Shown here: in pieces, positions 7,817 to 41,571 of the stretch
Numbering within the stretch: the stretch's first letter is position 1
How the letters are laid out: each line of letters starts with the position of its first letter
Assembly (NCBI GenBank): GCA_963758915.1
Contig: CAVWXH010000015.1
Span: 1 to 64,000 of the forward strand
DNA from: an uncultured Methanomicrobiales archaeon
GTDB lineage: Archaea > Halobacteriota > Methanomicrobia > Methanomicrobiales > Methanospirillaceae
Reading direction: 5' to 3'
Length of the DNA stretch: 64,000 nt
Made by a program: the position numbers and the translations under genes
Notes under the pieces: generated by a model
Database searches by the model: none
What the model saw: only the letters and a program-made list of their open reading frames with translations
What the model was told of the DNA's origin: nothing

Positions 7817-9973
7817 CTACGTGGCATCCGGTGCAATAGATGGGTCCCGGCACTCCGGTTCTGGTACAAACACCCGTGATGACGACAATTCCGCCATGAA
7901 ATCGTCGATATGATACATATCGCTCAGGACCATCTCGCGGAACCTTGCGGCAGGGATTAAGCCACCGAATTTCCATCCATCTGGTGCAGGGAGCAGGAGG
8001 ACCGATTCCACCTCCTCCCGGGAAAACATCGCTGCCTCCTCCGCAGCATGGACAACCATCCCGAACGGATCGCCACCCCTGACACCGCGCACGAGAAGCG
8101 AGAAGTCATTATAACTGATGCTGCCCCGCAGCCCGAGTGCCCGGGTGAGCAGGGAAGAGTAGAGTTTCCCGAAATTGTTGTTCCTGAAGGTGAGGAGGAG
8201 GAAACCCATCCCCCTTGAGCCCTCCCGTACCTCAATTACGATATCGCCCCGGTGAAAATTTGCCGGGAATTTCGAGATCACCCGTGCCAGGTTAATCACA
8301 GCATCATCAGGGAGCGGAAGAACAGACTTCCCCCTGCGGATTATGCGAGATACACCCCTGCATACCACTTCACTATACCCGTGTGCCCCGCCGGTCCAGA
8401 ATATCCCCCCTTTCTGTTCTGAACCCGGGACCACGACCACCCGGTTACGGGCCTCGTCGCAGGTGATCATCGTCCAGTTTTTCCCACCCAGCTGGAAATT
8501 GGCACTGTTTTTGCTATTCACAAACCTGGCATCAAGCCGACCGACAATCTCGCCATCGGGCGTCACCGCACGGAACTCCCCGCCTCCGTGGATAACCGAA
8601 TACAGGTCACGCCAGTTTGCCTGGCCGAATTCTTTTTCAGCCCGGGAACCCAGCATCAGCATCTCACCATCAGCGACCAGGTACTCTTCGGCCCTCAATT
8701 TTCTGATTGTCTCCTCCACGGCCACAGTCGGGATCTCCCGGAACGGTGTAAGGCCACGTAGTGCTGTGGTGAGACTTTTTGCCGAGACCCTCCTTTTCCG
8801 GAGGATTTCCAGCAGGAGTTGCTGGACAAGCACATTATAGGGGCGCACATGCGGGATGAGCGGCTCCACCTCCTTTTTGCTCGCACACTCGATCACGGCA
8901 ACGGTGCAGAGGAGCTCGCAGGGGTCACGGAGGATGAATGCAACGAACGGTGGTTTTCCCCGCCTCCCGCTCCGCCCCATCCGCTGAAGGAACGAGGAGA
9001 CAGAACCCGGGGAGCCGAGCTGGACCACGATATCAAGGTCACCGATGTCTATCCCGAGTTCAAGCGAGCTGGTGCATACAATACAGGCGCTCCCTTCACG
9101 TGAAAACGCAGATTCCGCCTCACTTCTCGTCTCCGGTGAGAGGGAAGAGTGGTGCACAGAAAGGTGGTCCACACGGCCGCGGAGCGATTTTATCACTTTT
9201 TCTGCATCGCTCCGGCTGTTCACAAAGACGATCGCCTTCTTCCCGGAAACAACCCTGACAAGGGAGGTGATGCGTCTCCCATCATCCGGCTCAACCGTAA
9301 AGGAGAACTTCTTTGCACGTGGCGGGACTGGTACCCGGACAACTTCCTGTGGCCTGCCCGGTTCGGATAACCACCCGAGTACATCCTCAGGGTTCCCGAC
9401 TGTTGCAGAAAGCCCGATCCTCTGCACATTCCTCCCGGCCACCTTGTCCAGCCGGTCGAGAAGGCACCGCAGGTGGACTCCCCGCTCAGATTCGACGAAT
9501 GCATGCACCTCGTCGATGACCACAAACCTGAGGTTTTTCAGGTCGGCCATAAGTTTCCGCTCAAGCATGAGGACTTCAAGGGACTCAGGGGTGATCATCA
9601 GGAAATGGGGGGGTTCCCCGGCAGCCCACGCACGGTCCCCCTTCGGGACATCGCCGTGCCATTTCTGGACCTCAAGGCCTGTCGGGACGGCAAACGTGAG
9701 GAAACGGCTTTCCTGGTCATTGATGAGCGCTTTCAACGGGGAGATATAGATACAGGCAACCCCGCGACATCCCTCTTTTAACATGGTGTCAGTGACCGGG
9801 ATAAGCGCAGCCTCAGTTTTACCCCCGGCAGTCGGTGCGAGGACCAGTACGTCACTGCCTGACCATACCGCCCGGCAGGTCTGTTCCTGCACATCACGGA
9901 GCTCACTCCATCCGAGACGCTGCAGGAGTACTGACTGGAGCGACTCGTGCAACCCCTCATACACCGAAGACAC
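7817..9973 (-). CDS. Lhr-like SF2 DEAD/DEAH-box helicase
   Basis: APTAGGKT, SPLKAL, ITPESL, DEVH, LSAT, LELGIDIG, QRMGRSGR. Confidence 0.9.
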   Translation of the reverse strand: MSSVYEGLHESLQSVLLQRLGWSELRDVQEQTCRAVWSGSDVLVLAPTAGGKTEAALIPVTDTMLKEGCRGVACIYISPLKALINDQESRFLTFAVPTGLEVQKWHGDVPKGDRAWAAGEPPHFLMITPESLEVLMLERKLMADLKNLRFVVIDEVHAFVESERGVHLRCLLDRLDKVAGRNVQRIGLSATVGNPEDVLGWLSEPGRPQEVVRVPVPPRAKKFSFTVEPDDGRRITSLVRVVSGKKAIVFVNSRSDAEKVIKSLRGRVDHLSVHHSSLSPETRSEAESAFSREGSACIVCTSSLELGIDIGDLDIVVQLGSPGSVSSFLQRMGRSGRRGKPPFVAFILRDPCELLCTVAVIECASKKEVEPLIPHVRPYNVLVQQLLLEILRKRRVSAKSLTTALRGLTPFREIPTVAVEETIRKLRAEEYLVADGEMLMLGSRAEKEFGQANWRDLYSVIHGGGEFRAVTPDGEIVGRLDARFVNSKNSANFQLGGKNWTMITCDEARNRVVVVPGSEQKGGIFWTGGAHGYSEVVCRGVSRIIRRGKSVLPLPDDAVINLARVISKFPANFHRGDIVIEVREGSRGMGFLLLTFRNNNFGKLYSSLLTRALGLRGSISYNDFSLLVRGVRGGDPFGMVVHAAEEAAMFSREEVESVLLLPAPDGWKFGGLIPAARFREMVLSDMYHIDDFMAELSSSRVFVPEPECRDPSIAPDAT

Positions 9974-10110: not shown

Positions 10111-10118
10111 TATAAATA
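10111..10118 (+). promoter_or_regulatory. TATA box of the Phe-leader/symporter transcript
   Basis: A-rich BRE-like run then tataaata, 31 nt upstream of the conserved GGTAAACT; same spacing as copy 2. Confidence 0.7.
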
Positions 10119-10140: not shown

Positions 10141-10285
10141 AGGTAAACTCATGTCTGTAACTACGGGAATACGAAGCAGATCAATCCTGGTTGCAGACTT
10201 TTTATTCTTCTTTAGGTAGGGGACCGGGCGTTCTGCCGGATCCCCTGTAGCGTTTCTCCATAGTTTACCGTAAGGTGTTCGTATG
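10141..10285 (+). promoter_or_regulatory. Structured 5' leader with Phe-rich uORF, copy 1 (candidate attenuator)
   Basis: Conserved with 39961-40117. Stems: ggtaaact(10142-49)/agtttacc(10262-69); gtctgtaac(10153-61)/gttgcagac(10190-98); aggggaccgg/ccggatcccct (10218-10246). Followed by ggtg SD and ATG 10283. Confidence 0.8.
10151..10219 (+). CDS. Putative Phe-rich leader peptide MSVTTGIRSRSILVADFLFFFR (22 aa)
   Basis: Manual translation. Start, frame, Phe run and AGG-TAG end are conserved in the paralog at 39972-40046. Confidence 0.75.
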   Translation: MSVTTGIRSRSILVADFLFFFR

Positions 10286-10396
10286 CTTGGAATTAATGAC
10301 CCCTGGATATTGCTCGCTTATGGCCTTTCAATCGGCCTGGCGCTGGTGTGTGTAGTGTATGGCCTGCTGAACTGGAACACGGGGGGGGAGCCCTGA
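10283..10396 (+). CDS. Symporter small accessory membrane protein (37 aa)
   Basis: MLGINDPWILLAYGLSIGLALVCVVYGLLNWNTGGEP: one TM helix, aggtg SD, stop 1 nt before the symporter ATG. Matches the small proteins that precede methanogen SSS genes. Confidence 0.88.
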   Translation: MLGINDPWILLAYGLSIGLALVCVVYGLLNWNTGGEP

Positions 10397-10397
10397 A

Positions 10398-11978
10398 ATG
10401 GCGGTGAATACCCTTGTCCTCATCTCCGTAACTGCCATTTATGTTGCCCTTATGTTATACCTCGGCTGGCTCGGATATAAAAAGACAAAGACCTCCGAGG
10501 ATTACATGGTCGCCGGGAGAGAGGCCCACCCGGTAATTATCGCCCTTTCCTACGGGGCCACATTCATCAGCACATCTGCTATTGTCGGGTTCGGTGGACA
10601 GGCCGCAAATCTCGGTATGGGACTGATCTGGCTTACCGTGCTGAACATCGGCCTGGGTATCCTGCTGGCTTTCGTCGTATTCGGTAAGAAGACCAGGGAG
10701 ATCGGGCAGCGGCTGAAAGCGGTCACCTTCCCTGACCTGATGGGAAAAATTTACCAGTCACCGTTTATGCAGGTTGTTACAGGGCTGGTCATCATTGTCG
10801 GCATGCCACTGTACACCGCTGCCGTACTGATTGGCGGGGCACAGTTTATCAGGGAAACGACCTCCATCTCGTACAGCACGTCACTCATTGGATTTGCCCT
10901 GATCGTTGCTGTATACGTGATATTCGGCGGACTGATCGCCGTAATGTACACCGATGCGGTCCAGGGGGCCATTATGCTCGTCGGGATGACCATTCTCCTG
11001 GTTGCAACGTACCTCCTCCTGGGCGGCGTTAATGCCGCAAACAGCAGCCTTACCGCGATGGCGCCACTTGTTCCGGAAAACCTTGCAAAAGGTGGCATGA
11101 CCGGCTGGACAACGATGCCCGTTTTCGGGTCCTCCATATGGCTGACCGTGATCACGACCCTTGTCCTCGGGGTAGGGATCGGTGTTCTCGCCCAGCCTCA
11201 GCTGGTTGTCCGGTTTATGACGGCAAAGAACAACAAATCATTAAACAGGGCAGTCCTCATCGGGGGTCCTTTCATCCTGATGATGACCGGGGTGGCGTTC
11301 ACGGTCGGCGCCCTCACGAATGTGTATTTCTACCAGACGGTTTCAAAAATTGCAGTCCAGGTGGCGCCCGGCGGTAATGTGGACACGATCATCCCGATCT
11401 TCATCAACCAGGCAATGCCGGACTGGTTCGTGGTACTGTTCATGGTAACACTGCTTGCTGCGGCGATGTCCACGCTGAGTTCCCTCTTCCATACGATGGG
11501 GACAGCCCTGATATGCGACCTCTGGGGGAGGGGGCGCCAGTGTGCATTATCAATGAGGGCAAACCAGGTGGGTGTGCTGATCATGATTATTGCGAGTGTG
11601 ATTATTGCATTCCTGATGCCGGGCAGTATCATCGCCCTCGCAACCGCGATGTTCATGGGGTTATGTGCCTCTGCATTCCTCCCGGCCTTCGCCGTGGCGA
11701 TGTATTCCAGAAAACCGGATGTAACTGCTGCAAAGGCCAGTTTAATCACCGGTGCTGTCGTGTGGTTTATCTGGGCGCTTTTCATCAATACCCGGTATGC
11801 ATCAGTATACGGGCTCTGCAAGGCACTTACCGGCAAGACCAGCCTCGCGGGGCTTCCCTGGGCTGCTGTCGACCCGCTCGTCATCGCACTCCCGCTTTCC
11901 GCAGCGGTTATTATTATATTACAGTTCTATGCAGACCGCAGAAACGCGGAGGCAACGCCTTCCTCTCCAGCCACATAG
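10398..11978 (+). CDS. Sodium:solute symporter (SSS, PutP/PanF-like)
   Basis: EDYMVAGR, ALSYGATFISTSAIVGFGG, GGLIAVMYTDAVQG, QPQLVVRFM, AAAMSTLSS; about 13 TM helices. Confidence 0.95.
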   Translation: MAVNTLVLISVTAIYVALMLYLGWLGYKKTKTSEDYMVAGREAHPVIIALSYGATFISTSAIVGFGGQAANLGMGLIWLTVLNIGLGILLAFVVFGKKTREIGQRLKAVTFPDLMGKIYQSPFMQVVTGLVIIVGMPLYTAAVLIGGAQFIRETTSISYSTSLIGFALIVAVYVIFGGLIAVMYTDAVQGAIMLVGMTILLVATYLLLGGVNAANSSLTAMAPLVPENLAKGGMTGWTTMPVFGSSIWLTVITTLVLGVGIGVLAQPQLVVRFMTAKNNKSLNRAVLIGGPFILMMTGVAFTVGALTNVYFYQTVSKIAVQVAPGGNVDTIIPIFINQAMPDWFVVLFMVTLLAAAMSTLSSLFHTMGTALICDLWGRGRQCALSMRANQVGVLIMIIASVIIAFLMPGSIIALATAMFMGLCASAFLPAFAVAMYSRKPDVTAAKASLITGAVVWFIWALFINTRYASVYGLCKALTGKTSLAGLPWAAVDPLVIALPLSAAVIIILQFYADRRNAEATPSSPAT

Positions 11979-12696: not shown

Positions 12697-15600
12697 TCAA
12701 TCAAGTTTCCGGTTTCTCGTATAGATACTGAATACTACCAGAACAAAGATCGAAACTATCGCTGCTGCTTCAATAAGCATAGTAAATATGGAGTTCGTGG
12801 GTTGTGGGGGGAGCACAGGGGGATTCGCTGCCGGTGCATTCGATACCCGTGGAACAGGACTGGCAGAAGGCTGGCCCGCTGCTACGGATTCAGTGGTTAA
12901 AGAATTGGGTTCCCTGTTGTTACCCGATGAGGCACCAGAGGTCCCTTCCTGAACGGTTCCCGATTGGCTTCCTTTTGTTGCTGCGGGTTCTGATGCGGCC
13001 TGAGTTACCTGGTTGCCACTTCCGCCATAGCTCCCGCCACCGCCGCCTCCGCCTGAATTTGGATTACTCGCCGGGACTGGAGGAGGCACTCTGATTGAGA
13101 GACTGAGGTAAAGCATCTGAAGAGGATTTGTATAATGACCTACGGTAACAAGTGTAAATTGTGAAAGCCCGTTCGGAGAAATCCCTTCAAATACGTCAAC
13201 ATTCCTGGTTTCGTCATAATAGAGGAATTTTGTCTCTAATACCTCGATAGAGCCCAGGTCACCGACCCTGATTATTTCAACAGGTTCATAGACATCTGTC
13301 AGACCACCCAGATCGTTGTTTACAACCCAGTCAGAATTTACCGCAACCGTGATAGTATGCGGATTTTCATAAATGAAACCTGATGGATATACCAGTTCAA
13401 TTCCTGCATCAGATACGTTATGGCTTCCAACAACAGGGATGTACAAAAGGGAAAGATCGATCCCATCAGTTGATGTCACTACGTAATAGTACCTGTTTTC
13501 GGAGATATTTTGATAAGCGAACATGGTCTCGAGCGGCGTGAACGACCCATCGTTATTCATTTGTTCAACCTTAAACCGGTCATGGAGATCGACAAACGGA
13601 CTATGTTTTACTACCCATTCGTGGCTGACCGCCATAACAACGGTTGCCGGACCGTTGACAGACATATTATTCTCAATACAATACATTGAATTTGCCACAC
13701 CGGATACATAGTCGCCATAATCTGCGTCCTGCACAGTAATATTAAATTTTTCATGTTCTTCAGGCGTTATTTCATCGGTAATGGATGTTTTTATTGAACC
13801 CTCCGGATAATACTGAGGCATTTCGAAGGTGTAATTCACCCATGAATTGTCACCGATTGTATCAGAAAATTCTGCTGATGAGATATCTTCGCTGGTTGTA
13901 ATTAATTTTTCAATAATTCCGGATATAATTGGACTCTGGGAAGAAAATGTGGTATTTTCCCTGGATACCAGAGTAAATGACGGCGACATTCCTTTTTCCT
14001 GAGGAATGATAAATAATTGTGTGTTATTCACGCCAAGTTCAAACGAATAACCAGTTCCATTCGATGTGTTTATTTCCATGAAGCCAGTATCCGATGAATA
14101 CTGGACAATGCCGGGGATTGTGTAAAGTGACACGTATTCTGTGGATTTTATAACATGAACATATCCAATTGCGGTATTGTTACCAAACTGGTTCCCTGTT
14201 GTTAATGAGATGATGTAATTGCCCGGGTTAACAAAAACATGGGATGGATTTTGTTCGTTTGACGAAGAATTATCCCCAAAATCCCAATACCATGTGTCCG
14301 GATAACCTGATGATAAATCTGTAAGCGTGGAGGACAGAGGAGCCAGACCAGAAGAAGGATTAATAGTAAATTTTGTTACGGGAACCGCCCCGGCAACGAT
14401 TAAATGTTCCTGCACAGAGTAATCCCGCGAGTACGGATTACTAACTATCAGTGCAGGACTAAAATGCCCTGCTTCCTGATATGTATAAACCGGGTTCACA
14501 TCAGATGATTCATTTCCATCGCCAAAATTCCAATAGTGAGAAGTTGGATTACCTGATGATGTATCGGTAAAACGGACCGTGAATGGAACCATTCCCTCGG
14601 TCGCATTTACGGTAAACCCAGATACCACGGGAGCCTGTTCCTGACCAAGTGTAAACAGGTAGATATTATAATCAAGAAATTCCTGATTTTCTGCCCATAC
14701 TATCCGCTCCCCGTATACCCTGGCATTAGTCCTGTGAGCATTCGGAAATGCATAGGTAATAACTGAGGTTTCATTCGTTTCCAGGTTGTAAACGTAAATA
14801 TTTTCATTCCCATAGGACTGGTCCCGGTTGTCATCCCATACAATATAATTTCCAAAAATTGAAGGCCGTTTTTGGTCAGACTCGTCAGTACCTGGAGTTA
14901 TCAGCGTTTTTTCGTGTGTTGTAATATTATACATTACAATATCATAGTGCTCGTCATGCCATTCCTGCCAGACGAGTCGATCATTGTGAATTGAAGGGGG
15001 TGACTGGAAAAATGATTTACAGTTGCTTGCAATGGTGGTGGAGTTCCCGGTTGCAACATGAAATAGATTGAGTGTTGCATCTTCTTCGGTACCGGCATAC
15101 CATGCGACCCAGTCACCATATATTGCAGGATACATATGTTCAGGGCCTGATTCGTCATTTGTGAGATAACGTGTTTCATTCGTAGTGATGTTATAGAGTA
15201 CAATGTTCCGGGTCCCTTTCGTGTCGTCGGTATAAACGATGCGGTCTTCAAAAATTGCTGGATCAATCTGGTTATACCAGTCCCCGGGAGTCAGTGTCAA
15301 TTCGATACCGGTAGAAATAGTGTACATATTGATATCATAGGTACCGTAATAGCTGTCCTGGATACCGTATACCAGAACATCATTATATATCGAGGGCTTC
15401 CAGGGACTTTTATTGCTGATGGTCTCTTCCCTGCAGGTTGTAATATTATACAAACGAACTGCCTGTTCACCGTTGCGATAATCGAGCCATACCAGGTTGT
15501 CCAAGAAGACAGAAGGGTAGATTTGATCTGAGCCGTCGGTACCCACGGTTATTGTGGTCATTGTCCCACCTTCGGTATTCTGAATATTAGTGCTCTTAAT

Positions 15601-15990
15601 GATCTCTTCCGAAAAATTCACCCTAAATCCATTATTTGAGTTTGCATCGGGAACGGGTCCAATTATTCCCCTGGTATTTTCAGCTGTTTTTTGTGTAGTA
15701 TTCAGCGAAGTCTGATTAAATTCGGGGGAGTTTTGCAACCCCAGACTGCCTTTTGGACGGTTCGGTATCGGATCAGGAAAAACAATATTTTGATGATCGG
15801 TCTGATTTGTGTCTGAATCAGATACATTATTGTACACGGTAAAATTATCAGCGTGAATATCCATTAAGGGGTTATTAACAGATATGGGATCATTGCCACC
15901 ATTGCTGCCTGTCAGATTATGAGCTGACACAGGAAGACACAATAGACAAAAGATTAGTACCCCGGTACATATTTTCCAAACAGAAGACAT
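12697..15990 (-). CDS. Large surface protein: beta-propeller repeats, 2 PKD domains, duplicated PGF-pre-PGF-like domain, C-terminal TM anchor
   Basis: Signal peptide MSSVWKICTGVLIFCLLCLPVSA; repeated 'P.I....IVW.D.R....I..YN' blades; PKD motifs WNFGDG/WDFGDN; poly-Gly linker; TM helix plus basic tail. Confidence 0.88.
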   Translation of the reverse strand: MSSVWKICTGVLIFCLLCLPVSAHNLTGSNGGNDPISVNNPLMDIHADNFTVYNNVSDSDTNQTDHQNIVFPDPIPNRPKGSLGLQNSPEFNQTSLNTTQKTAENTRGIIGPVPDANSNNGFRVNFSEEIIKSTNIQNTEGGTMTTITVGTDGSDQIYPSVFLDNLVWLDYRNGEQAVRLYNITTCREETISNKSPWKPSIYNDVLVYGIQDSYYGTYDINMYTISTGIELTLTPGDWYNQIDPAIFEDRIVYTDDTKGTRNIVLYNITTNETRYLTNDESGPEHMYPAIYGDWVAWYAGTEEDATLNLFHVATGNSTTIASNCKSFFQSPPSIHNDRLVWQEWHDEHYDIVMYNITTHEKTLITPGTDESDQKRPSIFGNYIVWDDNRDQSYGNENIYVYNLETNETSVITYAFPNAHRTNARVYGERIVWAENQEFLDYNIYLFTLGQEQAPVVSGFTVNATEGMVPFTVRFTDTSSGNPTSHYWNFGDGNESSDVNPVYTYQEAGHFSPALIVSNPYSRDYSVQEHLIVAGAVPVTKFTINPSSGLAPLSSTLTDLSSGYPDTWYWDFGDNSSSNEQNPSHVFVNPGNYIISLTTGNQFGNNTAIGYVHVIKSTEYVSLYTIPGIVQYSSDTGFMEINTSNGTGYSFELGVNNTQLFIIPQEKGMSPSFTLVSRENTTFSSQSPIISGIIEKLITTSEDISSAEFSDTIGDNSWVNYTFEMPQYYPEGSIKTSITDEITPEEHEKFNITVQDADYGDYVSGVANSMYCIENNMSVNGPATVVMAVSHEWVVKHSPFVDLHDRFKVEQMNNDGSFTPLETMFAYQNISENRYYYVVTSTDGIDLSLLYIPVVGSHNVSDAGIELVYPSGFIYENPHTITVAVNSDWVVNNDLGGLTDVYEPVEIIRVGDLGSIEVLETKFLYYDETRNVDVFEGISPNGLSQFTLVTVGHYTNPLQMLYLSLSIRVPPPVPASNPNSGGGGGGGSYGGSGNQVTQAASEPAATKGSQSGTVQEGTSGASSGNNREPNSLTTESVAAGQPSASPVPRVSNAPAANPPVLPPQPTNSIFTMLIEAAAIVSIFVLVVFSIYTRNRKLD

Positions 15991-16123
15991 TTCTAACCCC
16001 CCTACGCAGGACTGATACGATTGCGTATAATACAAGCATCGAATCGATTATATTAAAGGGTATCCCCGCTTCCTCAAACTCTTACCATTTCCGGTGAAAT
16101 CCGGTAAAAAAGAAGATAGTGAT

Positions 16124-22493: not shown

Positions 22494-22568
22494 AGCGAGG
22501 TAGGGTAGTCAGGATATCCCGACGGGCTCATAACCCGTAGACCGATGGTTCAAATCCATCCCTCGCTA
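22494..22568 (+). tRNA. tRNA-Met(CAT), initiator
   Basis: Acceptor stem AGCGAGG/CCTCGCT (A1-U72), anticodon arm ACGGG-CTCATAA-CCCGT with three consecutive G-C pairs, T arm GATGG-TTCAAAT-CCATC; upstream tatataa and downstream T tract. Confidence 0.97.
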
Positions 22569-22832
22569 CTGTTTCTTTTACACGTTTTTTTCTTAACAGC
22601 AGGTATGCTTAATAATACGACAGTTATTAACCCGGTATTTATTAACAGGGCCGGAAACAGAGTTTATAGCACGTGCAATACGGCAATTGGCGTTCCCCGG
22701 TACAAACGGGAGTGACGTCGTCCCAAAACCAGAAAGGGGTTGTTCCCAATCCCCAACCATTTGTGATCCAGCTGGTCCGGGGCATTGATTGGTAGCAGGA
22801 GTTTTATAATTCCAGGGACGGCGGATCCCTGG

Positions 22833-38666: not shown

Positions 38667-39818
38667 TCACAACTGGACAAGGTATTCATAGGCTTCCAGC
38701 GCTGCCTTGGCCCCTTCTCCTGCTGCGATGATGATCTGTTTGCCCTTGATATTCGTTACATCTCCTGCAGCAAAAATTCCAGGGACACTGGTGTGACAGT
38801 TAATATCGATAATGATCTCTTTCTGGTCATTGAGCTTCACCAGGTCTGATACAAAATCCGTGTTAGGTGACCAGCCGATCTCAGCAAATACTCCATCGAG
38901 GGTAATTTTTGATTCTTCACTGGTGAGCCGGTCTTTGATAGTGATTGCGTTAAGGAGGTTATCCCCGTGAAGCATGGTCACGACCGAATTGGAATGGAGA
39001 ATAATATTTTTTTGTGCCTCGAAGAGCTTGACATACACTTCGTCAGCCCGGATAGTACTTCTTACAATCAGGTGAACTTCCCTGGCAATTCTGCTCATTT
39101 CGACCGCAGTCTGAAGGGCTGAATTCCCCCCTCCTACAATGGCAACGACCTTGTTTTTGAATAACGGGCCATCACAGGTTGAACAGATTGAAAGGCCCCT
39201 GCCGAGAAAACGTTCCTCCCCATCGACACCGAGTTTTTTCGGTTGTTTCCCTGGTGCAAGGATAACAGCTCGCGCAAGGTAGGTAGTATCCGTGGCAGTA
39301 TGGATTGTAAATATTCCATCAGACGGGATAATTTCCCGGACCCCGTCCAGTTCCAGGCTGATCTTCTGCTCCTTGACCTGGTCCTCAAATTTCTTCATCA
39401 GCTCATCGCCGGTGATCATCCGGTACCCCATGTAGTTCTCGATGGTCCAGCTTTCAAGGGCCTGGCCCCCGATATTTTCAGTGATGACCACGGCGGTGAG
39501 GAGCTTCCTCGCACAGTATACGGCAGCGGTCAGTCCGGCCGGCCCTGCACCGATTATAACAACATCAAGAATATCCCCTTCGGTCCCGGTACCAAAAATT
39601 TCATTGAGTCGCTGGGCATCAAACCCGACAATTATCTCGTCGTCGATCGTGATGACCGGGACACCACGCTGACCGGAGATCCCGATCATGTGCTTTGCTG
39701 CTCCCTCGTCCTCCCCGACATCGATTGATGTAAAAGGGATGTTGTGTTTCTCGAGAAACGCCTTTGCCATCCTGCAGTAGGGGCAGTTTTTTGTTGAATA
39801 TACGGTTACCTGCGGCAT
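38667..39818 (-). CDS. Glutaredoxin-thioredoxin reductase fusion
   Basis: N-terminal CPYC..GQRGVPV Grx domain; GAGPAG, CSTC redox motif, GGGNSA, GIFAAGD. Start ATG 39818. Confidence 0.93.
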   Translation of the reverse strand: MPQVTVYSTKNCPYCRMAKAFLEKHNIPFTSIDVGEDEGAAKHMIGISGQRGVPVITIDDEIIVGFDAQRLNEIFGTGTEGDILDVVIIGAGPAGLTAAVYCARKLLTAVVITENIGGQALESWTIENYMGYRMITGDELMKKFEDQVKEQKISLELDGVREIIPSDGIFTIHTATDTTYLARAVILAPGKQPKKLGVDGEERFLGRGLSICSTCDGPLFKNKVVAIVGGGNSALQTAVEMSRIAREVHLIVRSTIRADEVYVKLFEAQKNIILHSNSVVTMLHGDNLLNAITIKDRLTSEESKITLDGVFAEIGWSPNTDFVSDLVKLNDQKEIIIDINCHTSVPGIFAAGDVTNIKGKQIIIAAGEGAKAALEAYEYLVQL

Positions 39819-39931
39819 TGATACCCTGCATTTCAGATGTATCCGGATATAAAGATGCTGGAACACCCGGGATTAATCTAACAGAATAGTTCAATCCAAC
39901 CCCGCACTGCCATGTCATAGCATAGCAAGGA

Positions 39932-39960: not shown

Positions 39961-40117
39961 AAGGTAAACTTATGTCTGTTACTATATGCAGGAGAGGCAC
40001 GGATATTGTGCAGGTAACAGGCGCCTCCTTTTTCTTCTTTAGGTAGGGGACCGGTGCTATAGCCGGATCCCCTGTATAGGCATTATAGAGAGTTTACCGG
40101 ATGGTGTTTTTATCATG
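39961..40117 (+). promoter_or_regulatory. Structured 5' leader with Phe-rich uORF, copy 2 (candidate attenuator)
   Basis: Stems: ggtaaact(39963-70)/agtttacc(40091-98); gtctgttac(39974-82)/gtaacaggc(40014-22); aggggaccgg/ccggatcccct (40045-40073). Then ggtg SD and ATG 40115. Confidence 0.8.
39972..40046 (+). CDS. Putative Phe-rich leader peptide MSVTICRRGTDIVQVTGASFFFFR (24 aa)
   Basis: Manual translation. Differs in length from copy 1 by exactly 2 codons, so the frame is preserved; ends ttt ttc ttc ttt agg tag. Confidence 0.75.
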   Translation: MSVTICRRGTDIVQVTGASFFFFR

Positions 40118-40246
40118 TGTAAAATTTTTCTAATCCCACATAATGAGGCAAAAAGGCGGAATGACAGCATTACTATCGAGGACACATGCCCCTGTCTCGC
40201 CGATGGTATGGCCTGCAGGAATCTTTCAGCCCGGAGGACATTCTGA
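40115..40246 (+). CDS. Putative 43-aa Cys-containing small ORF coupled to the binding-protein gene
   Basis: MCKIFLIPHNEAKRRNDSITIEDTCPCLADGMACRNLSARRTF; ggtg SD at the conserved leader position; TGATG overlap with the next start. Confidence 0.45.
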   Translation: MCKIFLIPHNEAKRRNDSITIEDTCPCLADGMACRNLSARRTF

Positions 40247-41571
40247 TGAGAACCAGCACGATTATTCTGGTATTAATGGCGGTGGGGCTTATCCTCGGAG
40301 GTGTTGCCATTTCAGGATGCACCCAGCAAGCCTCTGCATCGCCAAATGAGGTTAAGATCGGGGTTGTCGCGTCATTAACCGGCCCCGCGAGTGCGACAGG
40401 GAAAGACATGTGGCAATCGGCACAAATTGCCGCTGATGAAATAAATGCCAATGGAGGGGTTTATGTACAGGAGTTCGGGAAGAAAATCCCGGTAAAAGTA
40501 ATTGTCGGTGATGATGAATCAACCCGTGAAGGCGGCCAGAAAGCCGTTACAAAACTTATTTCCTCTGATAAGGTCGATGCCCTTGTCGGTGGTTTTTCGA
40601 GCGCCGTGACGACGGCACACCAGTCTGTTGTTGCAGAATACAAGGTGCCTTACGTCATAACCGGGGCATCAAGCCCGACCATCACGAGGAGGACGGATAT
40701 TGATACATCCTACATGTATCACTTCTGCCCGACTACCGATGATTACGGGGGCCAGACGACCAGGTTTATCAGCAACTTCCTCAGGCCGGCCATTTACAGA
40801 AAATTTAATTTCAGTGAAGACAGGCCCCTGAGGCTCGCAATTATTTACCAGGACAGTCCCTATGGGAAAGGAGTCCTCACGGCGGTTGAAAACACGATAA
40901 AGAAGGAGAATTTACCTGTCAGGATTGTGAGCAACGAATCGTTTAAAATGGGGGAAACCGACTTCAGGACATTGCTCACCAATGTCAAGGCTTCCCAACC
41001 CGACGTGATTTATTCAGCAGCCTTCCTGAATGAACAGGCGCCCATGATCACTCAGGGCCGGAGGGATGTCGGGATGAACACCATATTCGTGGTGGTCGAG
41101 TGCAACGACGATCCGGATTATTACAAGGGTCTCAGCAGGTATGGCGAAGGATCAATCATTGAAAGCCATTTCAGCCCATATACTGTGCCCAATGGGACTA
41201 CGTCCAACGCTGCAATTGCATTCAAGAGTGACTACCAGAAAAAGTGGGGCGGACTCCCCGGCATGATGGGTGCTACAACCTATGAGGGGGTAAAAATTGT
41301 TGCAAATGCAGTAGGGCAGGCGGGTTCACTCGATAAAACAAAGATCAAGGATGCCCTTGGGGCAACAAACATGCCTGAAACAATAGAGGCGATGAAGGAT
41401 GGGAAAATCTCTTTCTCAAAGGACGCCCGTGAGGCTGCCTTCAACCTCTACATGGAACAGCTTGTCTGGAACGAGACTGTCCAGGAACTACGGCCGAATA
41501 TTATTTATCCTGCTGAACTGAGCCAGGGCAGTTTTGTACTCCCTGACTGGTACCAGCCGGGAACAACCTGA
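40246..41571 (+). CDS. LivJ/LivK-like ABC substrate-binding lipoprotein
   Basis: Signal peptide with ISGC lipobox, KIGVVASLTGP, EINANGG, GGFSS, GETDFRTLL; ggagga SD. No permease or ATPase adjacent. Confidence 0.92.
   Translation: MRTSTIILVLMAVGLILGGVAISGCTQQASASPNEVKIGVVASLTGPASATGKDMWQSAQIAADEINANGGVYVQEFGKKIPVKVIVGDDESTREGGQKAVTKLISSDKVDALVGGFSSAVTTAHQSVVAEYKVPYVITGASSPTITRRTDIDTSYMYHFCPTTDDYGGQTTRFISNFLRPAIYRKFNFSEDRPLRLAIIYQDSPYGKGVLTAVENTIKKENLPVRIVSNESFKMGETDFRTLLTNVKASQPDVIYSAAFLNEQAPMITQGRRDVGMNTIFVVVECNDDPDYYKGLSRYGEGSIIESHFSPYTVPNGTTSNAAIAFKSDYQKKWGGLPGMMGATTYEGVKIVANAVGQAGSLDKTKIKDALGATNMPETIEAMKDGKISFSKDAREAAFNLYMEQLVWNETVQELRPNIIYPAELSQGSFVLPDWYQPGTT

Follow-up and report, generated by a model that had tools for sequence, protein, structure and literature searches.

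A conserved three-stem leader enclosing a phenylalanine-codon reading frame is a probable ribosome-mediated phenylalanine sensor in Methanomicrobiales

The stretch of DNA analysed here (the window; 64,000 nucleotides, contig CAVWXH010000015.1 of assembly GCA_963758915.1) comes from an uncultured archaeon whose genome (2.38 Mb in 18 contigs) encodes McrA and is thus that of a methanogen. Two copies of an RNA leader lie on the forward strand of the window, copy 1 at positions 10142-10277 and copy 2 at 39963-40106, and each contains three stems, which we refer to as P1, P2 and P3. Copy 1 stands before an operon that encodes a small accessory protein of a symporter (10283-10396, + strand; NF045580, E 8.5e-18) and an SSS-family symporter (10398-11978, + strand; PF00474, E 1.2e-50), and copy 2 stands before a gene for a Peripla_BP_6 (LivJ-like) substrate-binding protein of an ABC (ATP-binding cassette) importer (40246-41571, + strand; PF13458, E 1e-52; the score of NF011933 for this protein was below its cut-off). 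We present evidence that the element is, with a probability of roughly 0.7, a ribosome-mediated sensor of phenylalanine, that is of Phe-tRNA, in the 5' leader of phenylalanine-related operons of the Methanomicrobiales.

In copy 1 the 5' strand of P1 (GGTAAACT, 10142-10149, + strand) pairs with a 3' strand at 10262-10269 (AGTTTACC, + strand), as seen from the sequence, from RNAfold and from covariation. The P2 hairpin (10153-10198, + strand) has its arms at 10153-10161 (GTCTGTAAC) and 10190-10198 (GTTGCAGAC), and the P3 hairpin (10216-10249, + strand; core 10218-10246) consists of the arms AGGGGACCGG (10218-10227) and CCGGATCCCCT (10236-10246) around a loop of 8 nt. The corresponding features of copy 2, all on the + strand, are the P1 strands GGTAAACTT (39963-39971) and GAGTTTACC (40090-40098), both recognised in the sequence and by RNAfold, the P2 hairpin at 39974-40022 (arms 39974-39982 and 40014-40022) and the P3 hairpin at 40043-40076 (core 40045-40073). 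The two copies are identical in 79% of their aligned columns, and RNAfold predicts the identical three-way junction for both. A reading of the window made from the letters and open reading frames alone (the sequence-only reading) had described these stems; the strands of all three, together with the GGTG motif that follows P1, were found in the sequence where that reading had put them, and the A-U to U-A and U-A/U-G changes that it saw between the P2 stems of the two copies are correct. Note that the predicted energy of copy 1 (-45.9 kcal/mol, z -1.55) was equalled by 17 of 200 shuffled sequences and is not significant by itself, whereas that of copy 2 (-56.3 kcal/mol, z -3.19) was equalled by 1 of 200.

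The element extends well beyond these two copies. In the host genus, a DNA search detected the leader in all 12 of the 12 genomes. With a covariance model trained on 26 leaders, it was recovered from 105 of the 151 genomes that represented the host family, in 16 of 19 genera. An order-wide sample contained it in 68 of 151 genomes and in all six families (20/29, 5/20, 1/12, 12/30, 21/30 and 8/29 genomes per family). When the phylum was sampled, matches were limited to the 12 genomes of the host order, and 0 of 132 genomes from 20 other families gave a match at E ≤0.01 under strict filters, a result that does not equal absence. Named relatives were reached through the symporter protein and belong to Methanomicrobiales, Methanoregulaceae, Methanolinea, Methanoregula and Methanospirillum; in 76 of 80 such named loci the leader lies just upstream of the symporter gene. 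The element is therefore order-wide in the Methanomicrobiales, the order being named through these relatives. A comparison with Rfam 15 gave no match in the window at the gathering score other than one tRNA, and none at E ≤10 between 10050 and 10400.

Comparison among leaders, not the folding energy of a single copy, is the main support for the fold. We aligned 87 matches to the covariance model and kept 84 distinct leaders; note that an alignment fitted to a model in this way favours structure. Across the 84 leaders, 91.4% of the cells form standard pairs as compared to 82.0% in shuffles, none of which reached 91.4% in 500 attempts, and only 40-51% of cells pair in a slid control in which the 3' partner was moved by 1-3 columns. 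Double changes occur in 20 of the 24 pairs and account for 156 cells against 43 expected. The pairs that covary are all seven of P1, six of the seven of P2 and four of P3, the GGGG/CCCC core of which is nearly fixed. The proposal of a conserved three-stem fold with compensatory changes, originally drawn from two copies, is thus borne out in a much larger set.

The stems differ in how they vary. Ungapped P1 helices occur as 33 haplotypes (for example GGUAAAC/GUUUACC, GGUAUUC/GAAUACC and GGUAACG/CGUUACC), one of which, in 6 leaders, is the wobble variant GGUAAGC/GUUUACC, with at least six of the seven P1 pairs present in 66 of 84 leaders. Duplexes of native P2 arms have a mean energy of -8.35 kcal/mol, as against -5.2 for arms taken from unlike leaders and -5.0 for shuffled arms; P2 is nevertheless the least uniform stem, and only 36 of 82 leaders beat 90% of their cross partners. 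For P3 there are 59 distinct combinations of arms, including the change of GGGG/CCCC to GGGA/UCCC and the insertion of pairs. The P2 and P3 loops are variable, both in sequence and in length, and an A-N-N-G motif is conserved after P3. A reading of P1 at the level of DNA, as two half-sites of a looping factor, is less likely, since the G-U wobbles and the strand asymmetry of P2 and P3 favour RNA.

Enclosed by the fold is a short upstream open reading frame (uORF) of 19-31 codons. The uORF of copy 1 has 22 codons (MSVTTGIRSRSILVADFLFFFR, 10151-10219, + strand), with Phe/Leu codons at 10199-10213, an Arg codon (AGG) at 10214-10216 and the stop codon TAG at 10217-10219; that of copy 2 has 24 codons (MSVTICRRGTDIVQVTGASFFFFR, 39972-40046, + strand), with Phe codons at 40029-40040, AGG at 40041-40043 and TAG at 40044-40046. 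Both were identified as open reading frames. The ATG lies 9 nt past the start of P1 and its G begins P2, which in copy 1 closes immediately before the U-rich Phe codons, so that the Phe codons occupy the single-stranded stretch between P2 and P3 while the TAG forms the base of P3 (on its 5' side, in copy 1). A Phe-tailed ORF is present in 82 of 84 leaders, and in 75 of 84 its ATG lies inside the match to the covariance model. (In several of the leaders without an ATG in the match the model had clipped the 5' end, and the upstream sequence supplies the missing part.) Two further ideas, frameshifting and read-through of the UAG, were rejected, as the alternative frames end at once or, because the length of the P3 loop varies, are unconserved.

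The end of the uORF is nearly invariant. Counting back from the stop codon, which is TAG in every one of the 84 leaders, codon -1 encodes Arg in 79 (AGA 41, AGG 30, CGA 4, CGG 3, CGT 1) and Ser (AGT) in the other 5, codon -2 is Phe in all 84 (TTT in 83), and codons -3, -4, -5 and -6 are Phe in 54, 77, 66 and 65 leaders, respectively. (The single CGT is our own reading of leader L072; the codon table lists only the five commonest codons.) All 84 leaders have 2 to 6 Phe codons among codons -2 to -8, and 82 have at least three. The short leader ORF thus carries a run of codons for the amino acid to which, as described below, the downstream genes relate. Moreover, in the 420 cases provided by codons -6 to -2, C is found 13, 25 and 219 times at the first, second and third codon position, a synonymous TTT/TTC pattern which argues that the constraint acts on codons and not on U-richness alone. 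Ahead of the Phe run the peptide shows no conservation across leaders; the rest of the peptide varies freely because that stretch encodes P2. We also observed that the choice of codon depends on position, Phe at -3 being TTC in all 53 listed cases (the five commonest codons are listed), and that AGA makes up 41 of 84 final Arg codons as compared to 38 of 562 Arg codons in the long ORFs of the window. The pairing of P3 accounts only for the third base of that final Arg codon.

An end conserved to this degree might also be expected of an arrest peptide of the TnaC or arginine-attenuator type, in which a small effector such as free phenylalanine, and not the charging of tRNA, would make the ribosome stall as it terminates at Phe-Arg-UAG. 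The nearly invariant C-terminal residues and stop codon do resemble those of TnaC and of the arginine attenuator peptide, Arg is kept through five different codons, and the stop codon sits inside a stable hairpin. TnaC and the fungal arginine attenuator peptide are, however, conserved along the length of the exit tunnel and have no run of identical codons, whereas in the present uORF conservation is limited to the Phe run and the final Arg. Pairing within P3 also accounts for the TAG and for the last base of the Arg codon (AU in 35 and GU in 29 leaders at that pair), a run of 3-6 identical codons is a hallmark of charging sensors, and induction by abundant phenylalanine would be ill suited to pheS or to importers. 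We consider an arrest peptide unlikely.

The genes that follow the 84 leaders are the small accessory protein and SSS symporter in 63 cases, a Peripla_BP_6 (LivJ-like) protein in 16 and others in 5. Four of these five are pheS, the gene for the alpha chain of phenylalanyl-tRNA synthetase: L018 and L069 were identified by PF01409 (class II core; E 7e-74 and E 3.5e-90, respectively), and L052 and L080 by the same layout of ORFs only. The ORF after pheS in L069 matches B3_4 with 28.5 bits, just below the Pfam cut-off of 29.3, and fits pheT, which encodes the beta chain. The fifth, L077, has no recognisable downstream gene; this leader (family f1, genus g27) has a normal uORF and P3, is without an SD-like start (SD, Shine-Dalgarno), and may be a decaying copy. 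The downstream set reads as a phenylalanine regulon, in which the cognate gene is represented by pheS at 4 of 84 leaders and the substrates of the importers are predicted. Because the leader is common to them and to pheS, the SSS symporter with its accessory protein and the LivJ-like binding protein likely serve the uptake of phenylalanine or a precursor. In gamma-proteobacteria, pheST is under the control of classical attenuators (PMC1262725), and a Phe-codon leader before pheS-pheT, as in those bacteria, sets the supply of Phe-tRNA as the signal and higher expression when it is short as the expected polarity.

In all 84 leaders the last pair of P1 is followed, at a distance of 0-4 nt, by an SD-like motif (GGAGG, AGGU or GGUG), and a script found a start codon beyond this motif in 80. 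In copy 1 the segment 10273-10285 (+ strand), 3 nt after P1, comprises an SD-like AGGTG together with the start codon of the first structural gene, with GGTG at 10274-10277 and the ATG 5 nt farther on at 10283; in copy 2 GGTG is found at 40103-40106. At the other end of the leader, a crude scan placed the end of a TATA-like 8-mer 21-25 nt ahead of the P1 GG in 53 of the 84 leaders. In leaders of the copy 1 type the same spacing is seen by eye (the scan chose an adjacent A-run); the box of copy 1 is TATAAATA at 10111-10118 (+ strand), as read from the sequence, and its position suggests that the 5' strand of P1 is probably the very 5' end of the RNA. Bacterial-type scans of both copies found no intrinsic terminator (hairpin plus U-run) before the structural gene and no sigma-70 promoter matches above chance, and P3 is not followed by a U-run in either copy.

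When the first structural gene is not adjacent to the leader, a small ORF that begins at the P1-adjacent site bridges the gap. In the window this is a frame of 43 codons (40115-40246, + strand) that starts 16 nt after P1 of copy 2 and whose TGA (40244-40246) overlaps the ATG of the binding-protein gene at 40246. A script found bridging ORFs of 40-48 codons in 15 of the 16 binding-protein contexts, and the sixteenth also shows an ORF of 40 codons; the stop codon overlaps the next ATG by 1 or 4 nt in 14 of the 16 and abuts it in 1. In 3 of the 4 pheS contexts the bridging ORF overlaps the start of pheS by 10 nt. The peptides differ between lineages (MCKMFL..., MFGISETR..., MFKIFIK..., MRECSER...), and the keeping of an open frame without conservation of its peptide argues that initiation at the P1-adjacent site is what is regulated, and that it is relayed to the gene by translational coupling. 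Geometry and bridging ORFs together point to the P1-adjacent site as the likely point of control.

The leaders with a bridging ORF before the binding-protein gene include, besides copy 2 of the window, L014-L016, L019, L025-L029, L047, L050, L053, L054 and L056. Within the genus, the first ~16 residues (MCKxFLIPxxEAxRRN) are conserved and the remainder diverges. The ORFs of L014-L016 open much as the accessory protein does (MFGIS...), a sign that the leader was duplicated along with the start of that gene, and bridging ORFs more generally suggest that the leader may have moved as a cassette with its ribosome-binding site. The type of leader that precedes binding-protein genes (40100-40145, + strand, in the window) has U5-U7 runs both in the SD-to-ATG interval and in the first bridging codons; copy 1 has none.

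Partition-function folding of 71 leaders gave predicted unpaired probabilities of 0.14 for the 5' strand of P1, 0.36 for the AUG of the uORF, 0.65 for the Phe tract, 0.12 for the region of the UAG and 0.56 for the main start codon. (In Methanolinea-like leaders the AUG of the uORF is, by our own reading, covered by an extension of P1 and not by P2.) The low value at the start of the uORF suggests that the closed fold would shut its own sensor.

Starting from the observed fold, covariation, codon pattern, regulon and geometry, we infer that the uORF is translated, that stalling within it is the ON signal and that initiation at the P1-adjacent site forms the read-out. The transcript probably begins at the 5' strand of P1, and a ribosome would load on the uORF while the RNA is being made. 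With charged tRNA-Phe in plentiful supply, this ribosome would pass the Phe codons, terminate at the UAG inside P3 and depart, upon which the leader would close into the P1-P2-P3 junction and bury the SD-like GGU and the start codon of the uORF. The closed junction would leave the U-rich Phe tract single-stranded and place the end of P1 immediately beside the SD that serves the first structural ORF, and expression would be low. With tRNA-Phe poorly charged, the ribosome would stall on the Phe codons; with a Phe codon in its A site and ~15 nt covered on each side, it would occupy the 3' strand of P2 and, at the last of the Phe codons, the lower stem or the 5' strand of P3. The junction would thereby be kept open and ribosomes could initiate at the P1-adjacent site, so that translation, and perhaps by coupling transcription as well, would reach the downstream gene, via the overlapping bridging ORF if that gene is not adjacent. 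Note that P1 (7-9 bp, A/U-rich and closing ~110 nt) should need P2 and P3 to bring its strands together, an expectation that the energy model does not capture.

The sequence-only reading had offered a different switch, in which the UACC of the P1 3' strand pairs either with the 5' end, leaving the SD free, or with the downstream GGUG, blocking the SD, the choice being made by ribosomes on the 5' end. This local hairpin can form in both copies of the window, and 47 of the 84 leaders allow it with a loop of 3 nt or more; in a few it reaches 5-7 bp (-7.9 kcal/mol in L098 and -6.4 in L019), and the AGGU by P1 is kept even in L069, where no start codon uses it. It is, however, impossible in 34 of 84 leaders, including the many in which GGAGG directly follows P1, and its loop is too short in 3 more (37 together); the isolated segment has a median energy of only -2.75 kcal/mol; and each of the two motifs is conserved for another reason, UACC for P1 and GGUG as an SD. 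Its polarity is also wrong, for it would turn pheS and the importers off during phenylalanine starvation. Moreover, masking of the footprint of a stalled ribosome alters the predicted accessibility of the SD in only 8 of 84 leaders. We regard the SD hairpin as a poor candidate for the mechanism and do not uphold the 4-bp UACC/GGUG pairing as a conserved feature. What does stand from this proposal is the idea that the position of a ribosome chooses between states, which fits the embedded Phe-rich uORF; the P1/SD-hairpin switch is not the general means by which it would do so.

Alternative pairings around the P1 3' strand do exist in particular lineages, as the stronger SD hairpins of a few leaders and the local hairpins of family f5 indicate. 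In the f5 leaders L093, L095, L097-L099, L020, L094 and L096, the linker after P3 (J3/1) contains a copy of the P1 5' strand, GUAACGG, that can pair locally with the P1 3' strand over a U-rich loop, forming 6-7 bp; RNAfold favours this local hairpin over P1 in 5 of the 11 leaders displayed. Three further candidate pairings (Phe tract to SD, P3 3' strand to SD, and J3/1 to P2 3' strand) appeared by eye to be weak or lineage-specific and were dropped.

Several observations weigh against a ribosome-mediated sensor read out at the P1-adjacent site. The SD lies outside every conserved helix. Partition-function folding of the 84 leaders with the footprint of a ribosome masked at each of 3 positions revealed no systematic change in the SD or in P1: mean SD accessibility was 0.31 in the free and 0.32 in the stalled state, with 5 leaders up and 3 down, and P1 stayed formed. 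An anchored, alignment-free scan for covariation, which took in pseudoknots and contacts between the Phe tract and either the SD or J3/1, detected no further pair besides inner P1 and artefacts of the coding region. Some leaders of family f5 have a short P1 with which the local hairpin competes, and in the Methanospirillum-like pheS leaders L069 and L080 the first start codon lies 25 nt after P1. Finally, the sequence conservation of P3 and of the outer GGUA/UACC pairs in P1 exceeds what base pairing alone would demand, a hint of a further partner. Since the nearest-neighbour model ignores the bulk of a ribosome within the loop, the masking result neither supports nor kills steric models; it does imply that any occlusion must be steric, tertiary or kinetic. 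(In L069, at 2140-2230 on the - strand, and in L080, the AGGU adjoining P1 is kept although no start codon follows it, and the motif UAUCAGGAGAU occurs twice, before an ORF of 27 codons and before pheS.)

The excess conservation of P3 and of the outer pairs of P1, together with the A-N-N-G after P3, could mean that the junction serves chiefly to bind a protein or ligand, either riboswitch-like or as a tRNA-like mimic in autoregulation, with the uORF being secondary. The loops of P2 and P3 vary too much in sequence and length to sit easily with such a site, which also has no counterpart in Rfam at E ≤10 and leaves the in-frame pattern of Phe codons and the link to pheS unexplained. We think this unlikely as the main role, although a layer of ligand or protein binding may exist.

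A rival that shares the Phe-codon sensor and differs in its read-out deserves more weight. Here the Phe run itself would serve as an archaeal oligo-U signal for transcription termination or RNA cleavage, recognised by RNA polymerase or by aCPSF1/FttA and hidden by a stalled ribosome; after termination at the UAG, the closed junction would display the tract single-stranded, and the transcript would be cut or ended before the structural genes. The tract is U-rich, 66 of the 84 leaders having a U-run of at least 5, and no other part of the closed fold is predicted to be as single-stranded. In two published studies, Methanococcus aCPSF1 binds the U-tracts of terminators, the number of U4-tracts correlating with termination efficacy (PMC8716108), and FttA is proposed to police the coupling of transcription and translation (PMC11616081). 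That the closed fold would lock the start of the uORF suits a one-shot, co-transcriptional decision. A crude scan of the 2.38-Mb genome (ATG starts, 9-residue tail) yielded 47 candidates, and leaders of the present type came out for Phe only; of the two candidates inspected besides the two Phe leaders, one is rich in Ile and precedes a CDC48-like ATPase, the other is rich in Thr and precedes a flavodoxin-like gene, so that neither stands before an amino-acid gene. Phe codons that double as an oligo-U signal would explain why the leader was found for phenylalanine only.

Set against termination at the tract are the 18 of 84 leaders that have only U3-U4 runs, the distribution of C, which reflects selection on codons and not on U content, and the conservation of P3, J3/1 and the P1 3' strand, which would be needless downstream of the tract; the conserved bridging ORFs, too, would be unneeded by a purely transcriptional switch. 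One contig from an RNA library (221 nt, ~92% alike) runs from inside P2 via the Phe tract, P3 and P1 into the accessory gene, and thus reads through the tract; this is weak evidence, showing the read-through form in one library and nothing more. (The RNA data consisted of 11 metatranscriptome runs, as contigs only, each containing ≤0.17 of the sampled words, and are silent on transcript ends and levels; the four runs that were compared gave scattered contigs, in which gaps in coverage over the leader are uninformative.) We consider this transcriptional read-out possible, if somewhat unlikely, and note that translational and transcriptional read-outs could act jointly through polarity. Rather tentatively, the leader might be the first archaeal leader-peptide amino-acid attenuator in which the UUU/UUC run doubles as an oligo-U termination signal, hidden by the waiting ribosome and exposed in the closed junction. 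Such a tract would be like those of archaeal aCPSF1/FttA termination in being single-stranded, U-rich and of the kind that aCPSF1 binds (PMC8716108), and unlike them in lying in a putative translated frame at the 5' end of an operon and not at the 3' end of a gene.

In the trp, his, leu and pheA attenuators of bacteria, RNA stems overlap a leader ORF and the position of the ribosome decides the fold. The present leaders resemble these attenuators, and those of pheST, in having a short leader ORF that ends in a run of cognate codons and stands before the cognate tRNA synthetase or related genes. They differ in their archaeal host, in having no hairpin-plus-U terminator before the structural gene in the bacterial-type scan, and in that neither masked folding nor the covariation scan found alternative pairing of the 1:2/2:3/3:4 kind; instead, one closing helix links the 5' end of the transcript to the nucleotides before the SD, and the whole uORF lies within a three-way junction. 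In the ermC and cat leaders of Gram-positive bacteria, a drug-stalled ribosome remodels the leader and frees the base-paired SD of the resistance gene without any terminator. Similarly, a ribosome stalled in the leader ORF would here open a downstream ribosome-binding site with no need of a terminator, but the stall signal would be a lack of Phe-tRNA, and the SD lies 0-4 nt outside P1 and not in a conserved helix. Sequestration of the SD as in ermC is not what we found, given that its accessibility is unchanged by masking and that the local hairpin is weak and confined to 47 of 84 leaders. In the full-text literature open to searching, we found no archaeal leader-peptide attenuator, no Phe leader of a methanogen and no paper on the accessory protein. 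The sensing principle would be the classical one, whereas the host domain and the architecture are new, and probably also the read-out.

Other genes near the two leaders have no visible link to them. They are an Lhr-like DEAD/DEAH helicase (7817-9973, - strand) that is divergent from copy 1, a PKD-domain surface protein of 1112 residues (12697-16035, - strand), a tRNA-Met (22494-22569, + strand) and, upstream of copy 2, a fusion of glutaredoxin and thioredoxin reductase (38667-39866, - strand).

To our knowledge, the sensing of tRNA charging by a leader peptide has been regarded as a bacterial invention, and we know of few cis-regulatory RNAs in archaea. The element described here is conserved across an order of methanogens and has a different architecture, with a closing helix that runs from the 5' end to the ribosome-binding site and no terminator hairpin. 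If it acts as we propose, it would provide a natural and compact system in which to study feedback from translation on archaeal gene expression, including the coupling of transcription and translation and quality control of the FttA type.

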